A stretch of 64,000 nucleotides of DNA from Escherichia coli (lineage in GTDB: Bacteria; Pseudomonadota; Gammaproteobacteria; Enterobacterales; Enterobacteriaceae): NCBI RefSeq assembly GCF_029227855.1, contig NZ_CP074356.1. One strand, given 5' to 3'. Every line of letters starts with the position of its first letter. The first letter of the stretch is position 1. The translations under genes were made by a program, and so were the position numbers. Shown here piece by piece: positions 19,983 to 25,392 of the stretch. Under the pieces are notes generated by a model that was not told where the DNA came from, ran no database searches, and worked only from the letters and a program-made list of their open reading frames with translations.

Positions 19983-20795
19983 ATGGCACGCATTATTGTT
20001 GTTACTTCGGGCAAAGGGGGTGTTGGTAAGACAACCTCCAGCGCGGCCATCGCCACTGGTTTGGCCCAGAAGGGAAAGAAAACTGTCGTGATAGATTTTG
20101 ATATCGGCCTGCGTAATCTCGACCTGATTATGGGTTGCGAACGCCGGGTCGTTTACGATTTCGTCAACGTCATTCAGGGCGATGCAACGCTAAATCAGGC
20201 GTTAATTAAAGATAAGCGTACTGAAAATCTCTATATTCTTCCGGCATCGCAAACTCGCGATAAAGATGCCCTCACCCGTGAAGGGGTCGCCAAAGTTCTT
20301 GATGATCTGAAAGCGATGGACTTTGAATTTATTGTTTGCGACTCCCCGGCAGGGATTGAGACCGGTGCGCTAATGGCACTCTATTTTGCAGACGAAGCCA
20401 TTATTACCACCAACCCGGAAGTCTCCTCAGTACGCGACTCTGACCGTATTTTAGGCATTCTGGCGTCGAAATCACGCCGCGCAGAAAATGGCGAAGAGCC
20501 TATTAAAGAGCACCTGCTGTTAACGCGCTATAACCCAGGCCGCGTAAGCAGAGGTGACATGCTGAGCATGGAAGATGTGCTGGAGATCCTGCGCATCAAA
20601 CTCGTCGGCGTGATCCCAGAGGATCAATCAGTATTGCGCGCCTCTAACCAGGGTGAACCGGTCATTCTCGACATTAACGCCGATGCGGGTAAAGCCTACG
20701 CAGATACCGTAGAACGTCTGTTGGGAGAAGAACGTCCTTTCCGCTTCATTGAAGAAGAGAAGAAAGGCTTCCTCAAACGCTTGTTCGGAGGATAA
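19983..20795 (+). CDS. minD: septum site-determining ATPase MinD
   Basis: 270 aa, MARIIVVTSGKGGVGKTTSSAAIATGLAQKGKKTVVIDFDIGLRNLDL (deviant Walker A). Confidence 0.96.
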   Translation: MARIIVVTSGKGGVGKTTSSAAIATGLAQKGKKTVVIDFDIGLRNLDLIMGCERRVVYDFVNVIQGDATLNQALIKDKRTENLYILPASQTRDKDALTREGVAKVLDDLKAMDFEFIVCDSPAGIETGALMALYFADEAIITTNPEVSSVRDSDRILGILASKSRRAENGEEPIKEHLLLTRYNPGRVSRGDMLSMEDVLEILRIKLVGVIPEDQSVLRASNQGEPVILDINADAGKAYADTVERLLGEERPFRFIEEEKKGFLKRLFGG

Positions 20796-20798
20796 GTT

Positions 20799-21065
20799 AT
20801 GGCATTACTCGATTTCTTTCTCTCGCGGAAGAAAAACACGGCCAACATTGCAAAAGAACGGCTGCAGATTATTGTTGCTGAACGCCGTCGCAGCGATGCA
20901 GAACCGCATTATCTGCCGCAGTTGCGTAAAGATATTCTTGAGGTCATTTGTAAATACGTACAAATTGATCCTGAGATGGTAACCGTACAGCTTGAGCAAA
21001 AAGATGGCGATATTTCTATTCTTGAGCTGAACGTGACCTTGCCGGAAGCAGAAGAGCTGAAATAG
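20799..21065 (+). CDS. minE: cell division topological specificity factor MinE
   Basis: 88 aa, [31 protein letters not shown]... Confidence 0.96.
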
Positions 21066-21092
21066 GCCCGCTGTAAAAGCGCATTTCTCTTC

Positions 21093-21123
21093 AAGGCAGA
21101 GTCATCTCTGCCTTGCGTTTTTC
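21093..21123 (+). terminator. intrinsic terminator of the minCDE operon
   Basis: aaggcagag-tcat-ctctgcctt followed by gcgttttt. Confidence 0.6.
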
Positions 21124-21333
21124 ATCCCCCTCATCCACGTTTGATAAGAGCGGCGAGTATTCTTGCTGATGCTACTCATTGCTTCCCCCCTTTACACCTT
21201 AATGCCGTTCCCCCCACACAGATCAAATTGTTTATACCTGGCTGAGTAAATAACCTTATTGTTAGTATAGGTATACTGGGTGATGATAACCCCGCAATTT
21301 CATTATTCATTGTTCTCCCATAGGATGAGGTTT

Positions 21334-21359
21334 CCCGCCGTAACTGGCGGGCTTTTTTT
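21334..21359 (+). terminator. second plus-strand intrinsic-terminator-like hairpin about 210 bp beyond the minE terminator
   Basis: cccgccg-taac-tggcggg followed by cttttttt; no annotated gene ends here. Confidence 0.45.
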
Positions 21360-21388
21360 GCCGCAGAATTTTTCCTTTTAACACCCTG

Positions 21389-21412
21389 TAAACGAAAACT
21401 GCGCCGAAGCGC
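21389..21412 (-). terminator. terminator downstream of the 1116-aa autotransporter gene
   Basis: On the minus strand aactgcgc-ttcg-gcgcagtt followed by ttcgttt, 18 bp after the stop. Confidence 0.5.
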
Positions 21413-21429
21413 AGTTTAATCGTTGATGG

Positions 21430-24400
21430 TCAGAACGACCAGTTCGCACCAGCCACCGCGTTCCACGGGGATTCCACACCGGCACCATGGCTATACCCCA
21501 CCCCGAGATGCCCGCTTAACGAACTGCTGAATGAGGCTTTAATACCTGCCTGATATATTCCACGTCTGCCCGACAAATCATTGACAAAATTACCGTCATT
21601 ATTCACTTTCACCCGGTTATCATCGACAAATTCTTTGCGCACAGCCGCCTTCAGCCACGGCTCAACTTCCATGCCGTTCCCCAGACGCATGTTGTAACTC
21701 AGCGTTGCGCCCAGTTCACGATATATACTGCGGGTATCGACTGATTTCGATTCCATACCATTGGATAAATGATATTCGGGGTTATCAGCGGTGAACCCCG
21801 TTAACGATGCATACGGCGTCAGGTTCCAGTTACCATCGGTAAATCGCATCCCGGTTTCAATGTGACCGCCCAGCCCGTTGCTGCGATAACTGCCGTTGGC
21901 GGCTCCACCGCTGCTCATTTTACCGGCTACGTTACTTTCAAAGCGGTTCAGCTTCACGATACCGTCCAGATAGAAACCACTTTCATGTTCCCAACTGGCA
22001 TAGCCGCCCAGAGAATAACTGCCCACACTGCCATGACCTCCGCGATCAAAACCGATATGTGAATGGGAATAACCCATAAAAGCGCCCAGCGTGGCAATTC
22101 CTTCTGGAATATCATTACGGCTGTCGATCCCCACTGTCATTCCGATCAGCGTCTGCTCAAACCCGGCACCCGCATCGGTGGTGACATTATTACGGGTGTT
22201 ATACGTCGCCCCCCAGACATTATTGTTGTGTGGACTCGCTTTCATTATGTTCAACCGCTCGCGAATACTGTTTAGCTCAGCATCAAATACCAACGGTAAT
22301 GTTGCTGCCATATTGAGTACAGCTGCCGTAGAAGGCGTGATGCGTTTCTCCGGAACGGGTGTCGGCGTTGGATCGGGAGTCGGGTCTGGATTTGGATTTG
22401 GGTTTGGGTTCGGGTTCGGGTTCGGGTTCGGGTTCGGGTTTGGATTTGGATTCGGATTTGGGTTTGGATTTGGGTTTGGGTTCGGATTTGGGTTGACATC
22501 ATTAGTCAGGTTCCAGTTGCTGTTGCCGTCGCTTTTCAGGACATACTCATAGGTCCCAAGATCAACGAAACCACCGGTATTGCCCAGCGTAAACGACGCA
22601 TCCCCTCCCCCTGTTTTCACCAGCGTCATCGCATCGTCAGACTGAGGGCTGACGCCGGTATCCTGAACAAAGATTTTAAAATTACCAGTGGCATTGTTGT
22701 TGACGACCAGTTGATCGCCCCGGGAGCCTGCAATGTTGGTATGCAGGTAGAAATTACCGCTGCCGGAAAGTTCACTGGTGGTCAGCGTATTGTAGATACC
22801 GTTAGTTGTGGCAGGCGCTGATAAATAAACATCACCGTCGTTGAGTAGCAAACTGTTTACTCTATATTCGCAGTTGCTGGTGCCTGCACAGGAATTATTG
22901 CTGTTAAGCCAGACACTGCCCCGGCTGGCAGCCGTCAGGTCGGCAAGCGTCGTATCAACGCCATTGCCGATAGTGAATGTCGCGCTATCGGTAATCCGGA
23001 TCGCCCCTTCGAGTTTAACTGGCGTAACATTATCCCGTGGCGTCATTAACGACAGGCTTCCTGTCGCGCCACTGACCGATGCATCCGCCAGCGTACCTGC
23101 GTAGACGATTGCTGTCCCGCCAGCAACCTGGAGATCTTCTGCCCGGGCCAGAGCCTGAAACTCATCTTTTGACCGCCCAAGGGTATATTGCCCACCAGAG
23201 TTAACCTTTGTGGCGGAGTCCTGACCCAGGTTTTGCATTGCACCACCCTTGTCAACCGTGGAGTCACGGGCTTCGGTACCTGCTAATACCAATAAATTAC
23301 CGCCATTTTCCAGCAACATATTGGTCGCTAAATTGCTGGCAATGGAAAAGGTGCCGTACTGGTGCGTACCGCTGATTTCAATACCGTTAGCCGTGCTCGT
23401 CTGGAGAGCGGCACCGCTGTTCTGGACGATATCTGTCGCTTTGCCATTATCGTTGACTGTCAGCGTTCCGCCTTCATTGATCGTTGTTTTTATTGCCTCT
23501 CCGTTAGCTGAAACTGTTTGTATTCCGCCGTCGTTAATTGTTGTCTCATTTGCCACACCCTCGACGATTTGTTCACCGCCAGTGAGCGTCGTGCCTGTCG
23601 CAGTGGCTTTTGTTTTGACGATCTCCCGACCGCCCGCATTGACCTGTGTTTTGGCGGAAGTGGTGTCTGACTCCACGGTTAACACGCCGCCATTTGTCAG
23701 CAGGATATTGTTCGCCGCACCCTGCTCGATGCTGAACGCGACGCCATCAGCGCGTGTCCCTGTGACCCGCGTCGCCCTGGTGGTTGCAACCAACGCGCCC
23801 TGACTACTCTGCTGTATCCCCGTTGCGCTGCCTTTCTCCCGCACATCGAGTATGCCGCCATTGTTAAGTCTGGTGGTATATGCTACGGCCTCCTCGTGGA
23901 CAATCAGCTTACCGCCAGCATCAACGATGGTATCTACCGCCGAGGTTTGAGCTACGACCGTCAGTTGGCCGGTATTTTCCAGCACAACATGCTCAGCCCT
24001 GCCTCCGGTAATAGTGAAGTGAGATGACCTCTGGTATCCATCAATATCAGTCCCCGCGCCCGTGTTGGCAACTAAAGCACTCCCCGTGTCCAGGTAAACC
24101 CCATGTGCGATACCGCCGGTATCGACAATCAGCGTGCCTCCGGCACGAATATTGCTGCCAGTTGCCGTACCTCCTTTCTCAACAACCTGCTTGCTCCCGG
24201 AAGAGATATTTGTTGTGTCAGCTTTCCCGCCGCTCTTGATATTTTGCGTGCCACTGTTGATATTAGTTCCCGTAGCAATACCATGATTATAAATATTCTG
24301 TGTACCGCCATTAATTATGGTATTAGTCGCGTTCCCGGCAACATCCATGGCCCCGCCGTTATCTATTCGGGTCGCATCAGCTTTAGCATTCGTTAAAACT

Positions 24401-24780
24401 GACATTGTTCCTTTATCGTTAATTATCGTCCCTGTAGAAATTCCTCCCTCACTAATTGTCTGGCTGCCACCGTTAATGACTGTATTATTAGCCTGCCCCT
24501 GATAAGAGCCATGACCAGATACCTCTTGATGTCCACCAGTATCAATAACACTTCCATTAGAAATCCCGCCATATACCTCCTGATTGCCGTGATTGATGAT
24601 ATGAGCATTATTTGTTGTACCTCGTTCATCTACTCTTTGGCTGCCGTCTACAGTCTCATCATTTACAACGCCAATAACATTAGAAGTGAAGGCCGTCATC
24701 CCAGGCGGGGCATATATCATGGCAGCTATCAATAAGGAAAGTACTGAGCGGTGAAAATAATAGCGACTGATTCTGTTCAT
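21430..24780 (-). CDS. type Va autotransporter adhesin (AIDA-I/Ag43-like passenger, Asn-Pro repeat linker, C-terminal beta-barrel); apparently intact
   Basis: Extended autotransporter signal peptide MNRISRYYFHRSVLSLLIAAMIYAPPGMTA from the ATG at 24780 (GAGG 9 nt upstream); glycine-rich beta-helix passenger repeats; (NP)n-DPTPDPTPTPVP linker; C-terminus ...AGANWSF. Occupies the ymgG-minE interval where K-12 carries only short remnants (recalled). Confidence 0.85.
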   Translation of the reverse strand: MNRISRYYFHRSVLSLLIAAMIYAPPGMTAFTSNVIGVVNDETVDGSQRVDERGTTNNAHIINHGNQEVYGGISNGSVIDTGGHQEVSGHGSYQGQANNTVINGGSQTISEGGISTGTIINDKGTMSVLTNAKADATRIDNGGAMDVAGNATNTIINGGTQNIYNHGIATGTNINSGTQNIKSGGKADTTNISSGSKQVVEKGGTATGSNIRAGGTLIVDTGGIAHGVYLDTGSALVANTGAGTDIDGYQRSSHFTITGGRAEHVVLENTGQLTVVAQTSAVDTIVDAGGKLIVHEEAVAYTTRLNNGGILDVREKGSATGIQQSSQGALVATTRATRVTGTRADGVAFSIEQGAANNILLTNGGVLTVESDTTSAKTQVNAGGREIVKTKATATGTTLTGGEQIVEGVANETTINDGGIQTVSANGEAIKTTINEGGTLTVNDNGKATDIVQNSGAALQTSTANGIEISGTHQYGTFSIASNLATNMLLENGGNLLVLAGTEARDSTVDKGGAMQNLGQDSATKVNSGGQYTLGRSKDEFQALARAEDLQVAGGTAIVYAGTLADASVSGATGSLSLMTPRDNVTPVKLEGAIRITDSATFTIGNGVDTTLADLTAASRGSVWLNSNNSCAGTSNCEYRVNSLLLNDGDVYLSAPATTNGIYNTLTTSELSGSGNFYLHTNIAGSRGDQLVVNNNATGNFKIFVQDTGVSPQSDDAMTLVKTGGGDASFTLGNTGGFVDLGTYEYVLKSDGNSNWNLTNDVNPNPNPNPNPNPNPNPNPNPNPNPNPNPNPNPNPNPDPTPDPTPTPVPEKRITPSTAAVLNMAATLPLVFDAELNSIRERLNIMKASPHNNNVWGATYNTRNNVTTDAGAGFEQTLIGMTVGIDSRNDIPEGIATLGAFMGYSHSHIGFDRGGHGSVGSYSLGGYASWEHESGFYLDGIVKLNRFESNVAGKMSSGGAANGSYRSNGLGGHIETGMRFTDGNWNLTPYASLTGFTADNPEYHLSNGMESKSVDTRSIYRELGATLSYNMRLGNGMEVEPWLKAAVRKEFVDDNRVKVNNDGNFVNDLSGRRGIYQAGIKASFSSSLSGHLGVGYSHGAGVESPWNAVAGANWSF
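22350..22494 (-). repeat. in-frame tandem hexanucleotide repeat (ggttYg/ggattt units) encoding (Asn-Pro)~17 followed by DPTPDPTPTPVP; coordinates approximate
   Basis: Visible run gggtttgggttcgggttcgggttc... on the plus strand; translates on the minus strand to NPNPNP... inside the autotransporter. Confidence 0.8.
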
Positions 24781-25392
24781 AAATTTCATCCTCTGAAAAA
24801 TGAATACTGAGTACTGAGTAGCGTCTAAGTAACCTAAGCTCGGCTGCAACATCAGCCCGCAGGCACCAGACCAGGGGATTCATCCTGAAGAGACAGCGCA
24901 GGTGTATTGTGTTCACCGCTCACCAAAGACATCATGATGAAATGATGATATCCCGCATAATAAAGAGGCATTTTTTAAACGCAATGCGCTGAAGTGTAGT
25001 TGGATAAAAAATCACTCTTTTCAGATAATACTGTCGTACGCTTATCTTTCGACAATGAGGCCGTCGGCAAAATAAAATGACTAATGTAATCGTTGCTGAT
25101 GAATATCTTCTGCTCACATAAAAATCACACAATAATATTGATAAATCAGATTATCTTACCTTTACAACATTGCGTTAACAGTCAATGACACTTCTTGAAT
25201 AAAAATATTGTCAATCAATGAGTTATTCCTCATTTAAGATTATTCTCATTCACGTAAAAAACATAATTCCTATCATCACAGCCACGCTCATTTTGAATTA
25301 TCTGAATAATAGCGAGCGTTCTTTAGTTAAGCAGATCTTAATTGAAGACGAAATTATTGTGTGTGCAACTTACTTAATACCGGACATCTAAG

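Follow-up and report, generated by a model that had tools for sequence, protein, structure and literature searches.

What does an intrinsic terminator do behind an operon that already ends in one of its own? This question is raised by a 64,000-nucleotide stretch of the Escherichia coli chromosome (contig NZ_CP074356.1; hereafter the window), in which the 364-bp spacer between minE and a convergent autotransporter gene contains three hairpins. The outer two terminate minCDE and the autotransporter gene, respectively. The middle one, referred to below as the second hairpin, is a plus-strand structure with a T-run at 21334..21359, located ~270 nt past minE and ~235 nt past the minE terminator. 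A previous reading of the letters alone (the sequence-only reading) had singled it out as an orphan terminator at which a short non-coding RNA might end. Our analysis favours this explanation: with a probability that we put at about 60%, this hairpin terminates an unannotated, Hfq-associated small RNA (sRNA) of ~65-75 nt that is encoded on the plus strand from ~21284-21294 to ~21359.

The presence of a strong plus-strand hairpin with a T-run was confirmed by direct inspection, by a terminator scan and by folding. The stem, CCCGCC paired with GGCGGG (21334-21351), encloses the loop GUAACU and is followed by a C and by seven U residues at 21353-21359; the scan counted 7 pairs, 6 of them G-C, with a loop of 4 and the tail CTTTTTTTGC. 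Hairpin and tail fold with -12.2 kcal/mol (z = -2.8), a value equalled by 2 of 200 shuffled sequences, and the 1.5 kb scanned contain 4 terminator-like sites, compared with 1.5 +/- 1.3 in shuffles. GGUUU stands directly 5' of the second hairpin, which thereby displays the elements of an Hfq-binding module, namely a Rho-independent terminator, a long U-tail and a preceding U-rich stretch. The anatomy of the candidate RNA is thus a canonical terminator with UUU and a G-poor stretch of 40 nt ahead of it. Likewise in agreement with the sequence-only reading, the listed open reading frames (ORFs) include no credible plus-strand ORF that ends at the second hairpin. Two frames starting with TTG (21141-21245 and 21163-21249) end earlier and lie in indel-variable sequence. 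A frame starting with GTG (21280-21381), which is also open in Escherichia albertii, was rejected as a gene because it reads through the terminator to a stop codon past the U-tract and has a Shine-Dalgarno-like GGGAG abutting ATG.

The predicted sRNA body (21294..21333, plus strand) lies immediately upstream of the hairpin and contains a putative seed (GCAAUUUCAUUAUUCAUUGUUCUCCCAUAGGAUGAGGUUU) with the anti-Shine-Dalgarno-like motif UUCUCCC, as well as the UUU just before the hairpin. Conservation of the hairpin, one of the checks proposed along with the sequence-only reading, extends over this entire body. The sequence GCAATTTCATTATTCATTGTTCTCCCATAGGATGAGGTTTCCCGCCGTAACTGGCGG is identical in E. 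coli and E. albertii, representing an exact run of 57 nt (21294-21350) that takes in the hairpin. In the 5.2-kb alignment of the two species this run is the third-longest, the longer ones being located inside minD and across the minC-minD junction. The flanks of the core within the intergenic region (IGR), on the other hand, are only 52% and 49% identical, compared with 91% for minE, 93.5% for minD and 69% for the 3' part of the autotransporter gene. Conservation of this kind lies far beyond what chance would produce. A second E. albertii sequence, obtained from a metagenome, shows the same pattern of conservation, with 21294..21333 being 100% identical in both.

The same contrast is found within E. 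coli. Positions 21282-21371 are identical to K-12, in contrast to the first half of the spacer with its many substitutions and an 8-nt indel, and eight E. coli strains from different lineages likewise combine a kept core with a variable first half. Of 5426 complete E. coli genomes, 5315 have an 81-nt block in single copy, and its identity is 99% or more in 3753 of 5316 records; a repeat or mobile element was rejected, as there is one copy per genome. Among 71 E. coli copies representing 44 haplotypes, 22-39% of the columns are polymorphic in the flanks, compared with about one site in 21282-21312. Positions 21313-21339, which were fixed by the retrieval pattern, were excluded from this count; in 21294-21312, outside the constraint of that pattern, the sole polymorphism is a singleton at 21294. 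As judged from these alignments, the 57-nt core is under purifying selection. Since the autotransporter terminator, whose surroundings have diverged in E. albertii, keeps only its 18-nt hairpin there, the 40 nt upstream of the second hairpin would have been selected for a role other than termination.

The phylogenetic range of the element is narrow. In a MinE-anchored scan with one genome per species, limited to 80 Enterobacteriaceae loci (E. fergusonii and E. marmotae not being among them), the element was found outside E. coli in E. albertii only. MinE is 92-100% identical across these loci, and the spacer from 21242 on is matched only by E. albertii; in Salmonella, Citrobacter, Klebsiella and others, unrelated genes follow minE. 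Escherichia sp. MOD1-EC7003 (L012, 2769-2974) has an E. coli-like first half of the spacer and then changes abruptly at the contig end, probably due to an insertion sequence or an assembly break inside the spacer. A search of Rfam in permissive mode returned nothing near a gathering score, the best overlap being anti-hemB with 12.9 bits versus 49.5 (E = 7.9).

An RNA from this spacer has been recovered with Hfq in K-12. The feature table of a study in which interacting RNAs were ligated and sequenced (RIL-seq) lists an RNA named minE.ycgI.IGR (Bar et al. 2021, PMC8175672, Table S1), ycgI being the 344-bp pseudogene to which the autotransporter gene is reduced in K-12. In the stationary-phase sheet it ranks 38th with an sRNA score of 0.276, between rybB (0.292) and spf (0.228), and accounts for 137 chimeric fragments, with 5 unique interactions; a further sheet of that table lists it with 12 fragments (PMC8175672). 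Its SIC score is 0.8 and its U-tract is 7 (PMC8175672). Given the formula of that paper, S - 1/k, an SIC score of 0.8 means that the RNA is always second in the chimera (S = 1.0). Its interactors are target-like, with a median degree of 2 and a median SIC of -0.5, and it ranks close to RNAs that have since been recognised as sRNAs, that is those from the 3' untranslated regions (UTRs) of sucD, malG and uhpT and fliC.fliA.IGR (PMC8175672). No score cut-off was set in the study, and minE.ycgI.IGR is not mentioned in its text (PMC8175672).

The U-tract's length links this RNA to the second hairpin. Counting both strands, the K-12 spacer has a single T/U run of at least 6, the T7 after the second hairpin; the minE terminator has T5, and on the minus strand there is no U-tract of at least 5. 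Because this sole run of at least 6 matches the U-tract of 7, we infer that minE.ycgI.IGR corresponds to the second-hairpin element on the minE strand. Hfq association is thus provided by published K-12 RIL-seq data, and its assignment to the second hairpin rests on the U-tract of 7.

How such an RNA might work can be outlined from these features. As we infer it, the RNA would start from a weak candidate promoter, either at ~21284 (from TATACT) or at G21294 (from TTGTTA-N17-GATGAT). Its conserved and largely unstructured 5' part (UUCAUUAUUCAUUGUUCUCCCAU...), carrying the anti-Shine-Dalgarno-like UUCUCCC, would pair with target mRNAs, the UUU-hairpin-U7 module at the 3' end would hold Hfq, and the RNA would be made mainly in stationary phase. 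Within the 64-kb window, words complementary to the seed-like region reach at most 10-11 nt, as expected by chance, and no such word falls on a translation start.

The candidate promoter motifs are all on the plus strand. The hexamer TTGTTA noted in the sequence-only reading is indeed present (21259..21264), 17 nt upstream of GATGAT, but as a -35 element it scores only 8/12, below the threshold of 9/12 used for promoter scanning. It is mostly kept in E. coli, with TCGTTA in B2-type strains and TGGTGA in E. albertii. TATACT (21272..21277), a possible -10 element resembling those of sigma-70 and sigma-S promoters, would direct a start near 21284; across the 44 E. coli haplotypes the T, A and T at its positions 1, 2 and 6 never change, in contrast to positions 3 and 4, and E. 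albertii has CATTCT. GATGAT (21282..21287), an alternative -10 candidate with a start at ~G21294, is invariant in the sampled E. coli and reads AATGAT in E. albertii, which thus retains A and T at positions 2 and 6. Neither the key -11 A nor the key -7 T varies within E. coli in either candidate. The 17-nt interval between TTGTTA and GATGAT varies in sequence, whereas its length is constant in all copies but one, and the predicted start G21294 is the first base of the 57-nt run that is identical in E. coli and E. albertii. Taken together, these two weak, overlapping promoter candidates (8/12) would fit the proposed 5' end of the RNA, and the stronger RIL-seq signal in stationary phase would be consistent with a promoter of the sigma-S type. 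A Fur-box-like reading of GATGATAA...TCATTATTC was dismissed by eye, as a 10-nt insertion separates the halves; readings as sigma-28, sigma-54 or sigma-E promoters were likewise dismissed by eye.

The sequence between the two plus-strand hairpins bears on a different explanation. The intervening 200 bp had been described as AT-rich in the sequence-only reading, which holds for ~21200-21320 (35-39% GC) but not for 21120-21259, where the GC content is ~44-50%, C exceeds G and the GC skew ranges from -0.35 to -0.56. Based on GC skew and strain comparison, 21124..21258 (plus strand) resembles a Rho utilisation (rut) region, being C-rich, G-poor and indel-variable: 26% of its columns are polymorphic, and among strains the 8-nt indel and a variable poly-C tract form a hypervariable site at ~21184-21190. 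In E. albertii the spacer has a different sequence of the same C-rich composition. A bicyclomycin experiment in K-12 identified a Rho termination region at 1224064 (Rho score 24.9, p = 3.6e-67), with reads increasing from 18 to 571 in the 800-nt downstream window and from 230 to 293 in the upstream window (Adams et al. 2021, PMC7815308). Position 1224064 maps inside the TATACT motif, just past the C-rich tract (K-12 ~1224064-1224224, minus strand), 160 nt past the minE terminator and 11-21 nt before the candidate starts. The locus therefore documents three layers of termination downstream of minCDE, consisting of an intrinsic terminator, a Rho-dependent region and a second intrinsic terminator.

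From this perspective the second hairpin could be a back-up terminator for transcription escaping the minE terminator which, together with the Rho tract, keeps antisense transcription out of the convergent autotransporter gene. The Hfq-bound RNA would then be a stable 3' fragment of read-through, that is, of a promoterless long minE 3' UTR isoform processed on its 5' side, which could still act as a 3'-UTR-derived sRNA. The position of the K-12 Rho region between the hairpins and the rise in downstream reads upon bicyclomycin treatment agree with this, as do the C-rich, G-poor tract in both E. coli and E. albertii, the minE terminator with its five U residues only and the lack of a convincing promoter in the scan. 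However, a hairpin and a U-tract suffice for termination, as in the autotransporter terminator, and the 40 identical nucleotides upstream would be unneeded. Moreover, the bicyclomycin boundary is at 1224064 rather than at the minE terminator (1224224), and reads upstream of it change from 230 to 293 only; we count this boundary near the candidate starts in favour of the sRNA, although with 800-nt windows it is only suggestive. Finally, the sRNA-like RIL-seq profile of an RNA that is always second and has five target-like partners suggests function rather than debris. We consider a pure back-up role possible but unlikely.

The sRNA and read-through models can be merged into that of a Rho-gated, 3'-extended sRNA. 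On the boldest reading, the element would encode a stationary-phase Hfq sRNA confined to Escherichia and carried along with an autotransporter-adhesin segment beside minCDE, and Rho would control how much of it accumulates: normal Rho activity would keep the RNA low, and relief of Rho termination would let transcription reach the protective terminator, releasing the RNA. Such a combination seems improbable to us. If true, it would connect the silencing of an acquired segment by Rho or H-NS with the control of core genes at the post-transcriptional level, and an RNA level that depends on Rho would make the locus a useful case of termination control generating regulatory RNAs. An 8-nt perfect long-range complement is formed by CCUCAUCC (21129-21136), just past the minE terminator, and GGAUGAGG (21322-21329), before the second hairpin. 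The two are paired when the whole spacer is folded to its minimum free energy (z = -3.1); of the complement, 7 nt are kept in K-12 and only 6 nt (UCAUCC) in E. albertii. Were transcription to read through, part of the conserved core would be sequestered by this pairing.

Several observations weigh against the proposed sRNA. The RIL-seq name minE.ycgI.IGR is strandless, leaving the strand to the U-tract argument. Curated K-12 Term-seq lists for three conditions, lysogeny broth (LB) at an optical density (OD) of 0.4, LB at OD 2.0 and M63, contain no 3' end at ~1223978 (PMC7815308), so that the short non-coding plus-strand transcript envisaged in the sequence-only reading is backed by core conservation and by the RIL-seq U-tract of 7 but not by the Term-seq data that had been suggested as a check. 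Among the entries listed in the supplements of Hfq CLASH, in which hybrids are sequenced after crosslinking and ligation, there is none for the IGR, minE occurring only as a coding-sequence fragment paired with OmrB, and none for the locus among those listed in the SMRT-Cappable-seq supplements. The promoter scan of 20500-22000 called no site on either strand, the candidate -35 is poor in E. albertii, and the bicyclomycin-sensitive boundary sits at the very 5' edge of the candidate RNA. The whole segment is missing from some E. coli and from cryptic-clade Escherichia and is therefore dispensable. As for the hairpin, its stem is invariant apart from the substitution G21347A and changes in the last base pair, and so shows no covariation.

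G21347A is itself a further point. This substitution, seen at loci L006 and L007, is always coupled to a longer T run (T8-9 from 21353 onward). It was found in 19 of 75 metagenomic copies as well as in B2-type strains, among them ABU 83972, about a quarter of the sampled E. coli. It breaks a C-G pair of the plus-strand hairpin, weakening it from -12.2 to -5.0 kcal/mol, whereas on the minus strand it leaves a G-U pair (-10.4 kcal/mol). We read G21347A as decay or tolerance in one lineage; it is nevertheless an unexplained point that speaks against a strict requirement for a plus-strand terminator. In 11 of the 19 copies with G21347A the -35-like hexamer is also changed, to TCGTTA, which could indicate coordinated decay of the element in that lineage.

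The asymmetry of G21347A draws attention to the minus strand, where the core reads as a hairpin, a Shine-Dalgarno sequence GGGAGA, an ATG and six codons of an ORF starting MNNEIAG... (21176..21310, 44 aa here), with its ATG (21310) inside the conserved core. The core could thus act on that strand, encoding a small protein, a leader peptide or a decayed type I toxin; in the toxin version the plus-strand transcript would be the antisense RNA of the pair. In accordance with such a role, the Shine-Dalgarno sequence, ATG and first six codons all lie within the run of exact identity, the ORF is open in E. albertii (39 aa) and has been called in ABU 83972 and probably in UTI89 (as C1358), and G21347A keeps the minus-strand hairpin while breaking that of the plus strand. 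The body of the ORF, however, shows no coding constraint. Its length across strains is 15, 36, 39, 44, 47, 69 or 75 aa, with internal frame-shifted stretches in common variants and a truncation after 15 aa in the ST131-like strain Eco889, and only the first ~7 residues are fixed. Homologues among 5.8 billion proteins amount to 14 small clusters without a Pfam domain, whose named sources are all E. coli or Shigella, and the ORF is not annotated by the Prokaryotic Genome Annotation Pipeline (PGAP) or RefSeq. Furthermore, the peptide does not resemble a hydrophobic toxin-like helix, the scan called no minus-strand promoter, a strong autotransporter terminator is located just upstream on that strand, and the RIL-seq U-tract of 7 would go unexplained, given that the minus strand has no U-tract of at least 5. 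The ORF was accordingly rejected as a small protein gene for its variable length and frame and near absence of homologues, and a type I toxin-antitoxin locus was rejected as well, since in place of a conserved hydrophobic toxin ORF there is one that is length-variable and frame-shifted. Overall, we regard a minus-strand function as very unlikely.

We return to the proposed sRNA and to the segment in which it resides. The element, the autotransporter gene and ymgJ form a segment of ~4 kb, also present in E. albertii, that behaves as one indel unit. E. coli O150:H6 strain FEX669 lacks ~21121-25125, comprising the element, the autotransporter gene and ymgJ, and its junction fuses the U-tract of the minE terminator to the upstream region of ymgI. 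In the cryptic-clade genomes sampled (L011 and L013) and in E. whittamii (L015), minE is followed by the region upstream of a ymgG homologue. No obvious target-site duplication was seen at the segment junctions. Smaller deletions nearby, both of the K-12 ycgI type and in a metagenomic locus (L124), spare the element. The latter, an E. coli variant (contig ERZ894220 NODE-10654), has lost ~240 bp, so that the element's T-run continues directly into the inner part of the beta-barrel coding region of the autotransporter gene; the deletion takes out the autotransporter terminator and leaves the element intact.

These rearrangements could suggest that the element has no present function and is a relic terminator brought in with the autotransporter segment, its conservation reflecting recent recombination between E. 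coli and E. albertii. That the segment is absent as a unit from FEX669 and cryptic-clade Escherichia would suit this idea, as would the decay-type mutations in B2 strains. A recombined tract of 57 nt between flanks of ~50% identity is implausible, however, and two E. albertii sequences show the same pattern. In addition, the RNA is found on Hfq with defined partners, and the neighbouring deletions leave the element intact. We therefore find a relic hardly credible.

The surrounding features complete the picture of the locus. The window is E. coli chromosome, with 100% identity to strain JNEC-KY178 across the region. On the plus strand, minC and minD precede minE (20799-21065), whose intrinsic terminator (21092..21123, hairpin 21092-21115) was found by the terminator scan as a 10-bp stem followed by CGUUUUU; it folds with -17.0 kcal/mol (z = -6.9). 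In K-12 it corresponds to a strong minus-strand 3' end at 1224224/5 detected by Term-seq (Adams et al. 2021, PMC7815308, Supplementary file 1). The autotransporter gene (21430-24852, minus strand, 1140 codons) is convergent with minCDE, and its terminator, read from the sequence at 21396..21417 on the minus strand, consists of ACUGCGC-UUCG-GCGCAGU followed by UUUUCGUUU and bounds the candidate RNA from outside. The istR model of Rfam matches this hairpin weakly and in its terminator part only (16 bits versus a gathering score of 45). The suggestion in the sequence-only reading that the transcript would be antisense to the 3' UTR of the autotransporter gene could not be upheld: as this gene has its own terminator at 21417-21396, between the stop codon and the element, the candidate RNA (~21284/21294-21359) misses the terminated 3' UTR and would overlap upon read-through only.

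A minority of E. coli, the present one included, carries an intact autotransporter gene (~380-450 records at least 99% identical over the region), while K-12, O157:H7 and B2 strains are left with no more than ~340-750 bp of its 3' part (ycgI). The protein, annotated as YpjA/EhaD-like (1140 aa), has a long Pro-Asn repeat linker (PNPNPN...). The K-12 RefSeq record has no annotated gene between ycgI and minE. In an over-expression screen for filamentation in UTI89, an enriched region around minCDE (1,297,038-1,299,321) reached downstream over the ycgI homologue and the ORF C1358, and according to the authors, linkage to minC and an effect of the downstream fragment were not distinguishable (PMC6206680). 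C1358, a hypothetical ORF of UTI89, covers the spacer between minE and the autotransporter gene and is probably the MNNEIAG... ORF.

Full-text searches with sequence strings of the element returned no paper, and searches on minCDE in connection with sRNAs and on ymgJ and b1173 gave nothing on the element. In the literature searched it thus appears only as the unvalidated supplementary row minE.ycgI.IGR, and it is absent from RefSeq annotation and Rfam. Work on bacterial small RNAs takes E. coli K-12 as its reference organism. In this setting, an anonymous RIL-seq node becomes tied to a precise 66-nt sequence under strong purifying selection in two Escherichia species, turning it into a testable gene with a candidate seed. 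Should the RNA be mere read-through debris, the finding would be an ordinary one.

How, then, does the element compare with known systems? Like the type I toxin-antitoxin loci symE/SymR and tisB/IstR-1, it comprises a terminator-bearing RNA that is antisense to a small ORF at its Shine-Dalgarno sequence and start codon. Unlike in these systems, the ORF is variable through frame shifts and not toxin-like, no promoter was called, and the istR match concerns another hairpin. With cis-encoded sRNAs of the GadY type it shares its convergent arrangement with a neighbouring gene, here that of the autotransporter. In contrast to GadY, the autotransporter mRNA ends (21417-21396) before the element, confining overlap to read-through, and in K-12 the element is fully conserved next to a mere 344-bp remnant of the autotransporter gene.

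A closer parallel is offered by 3'-UTR-derived sRNAs such as SdhX (sucD), MalH (malG) and CpxQ (cpxP), which are likewise encoded on the same strand downstream of an operon, end in an intrinsic terminator and are near in the RIL-seq ranking. These RNAs share the terminator of their mRNA, whereas minE has an efficient one of its own ~235 nt upstream, with the Rho region in between. Accordingly, the element has no 3' end in common with minE, which ends ~245 nt upstream (K-12 1224224/5), nor is it co-conserved with minE, being absent from relatives that keep minCDE. A standard 3'-UTR-derived sRNA of minE was rejected on these two grounds.

The candidate differs from the intergenic Hfq sRNAs RybB, MicA, CyaR and Spot 42 in its candidate status, in having no Rfam family, in the Rho-sensitive boundary at its 5' edge and in a range that, among the 80 Enterobacteriaceae loci, comprises E. 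coli and E. albertii only. In the following respects it resembles this group. Like them, it is a short RNA whose 3' end is formed by a Rho-independent terminator with at least 7 U residues and a preceding U-rich stretch, and its 5' part is conserved, single-stranded and equipped with an anti-Shine-Dalgarno-like motif. Moreover, like RybB and Spot 42, it is the second RNA in RIL-seq chimeras, with a score that falls between theirs.

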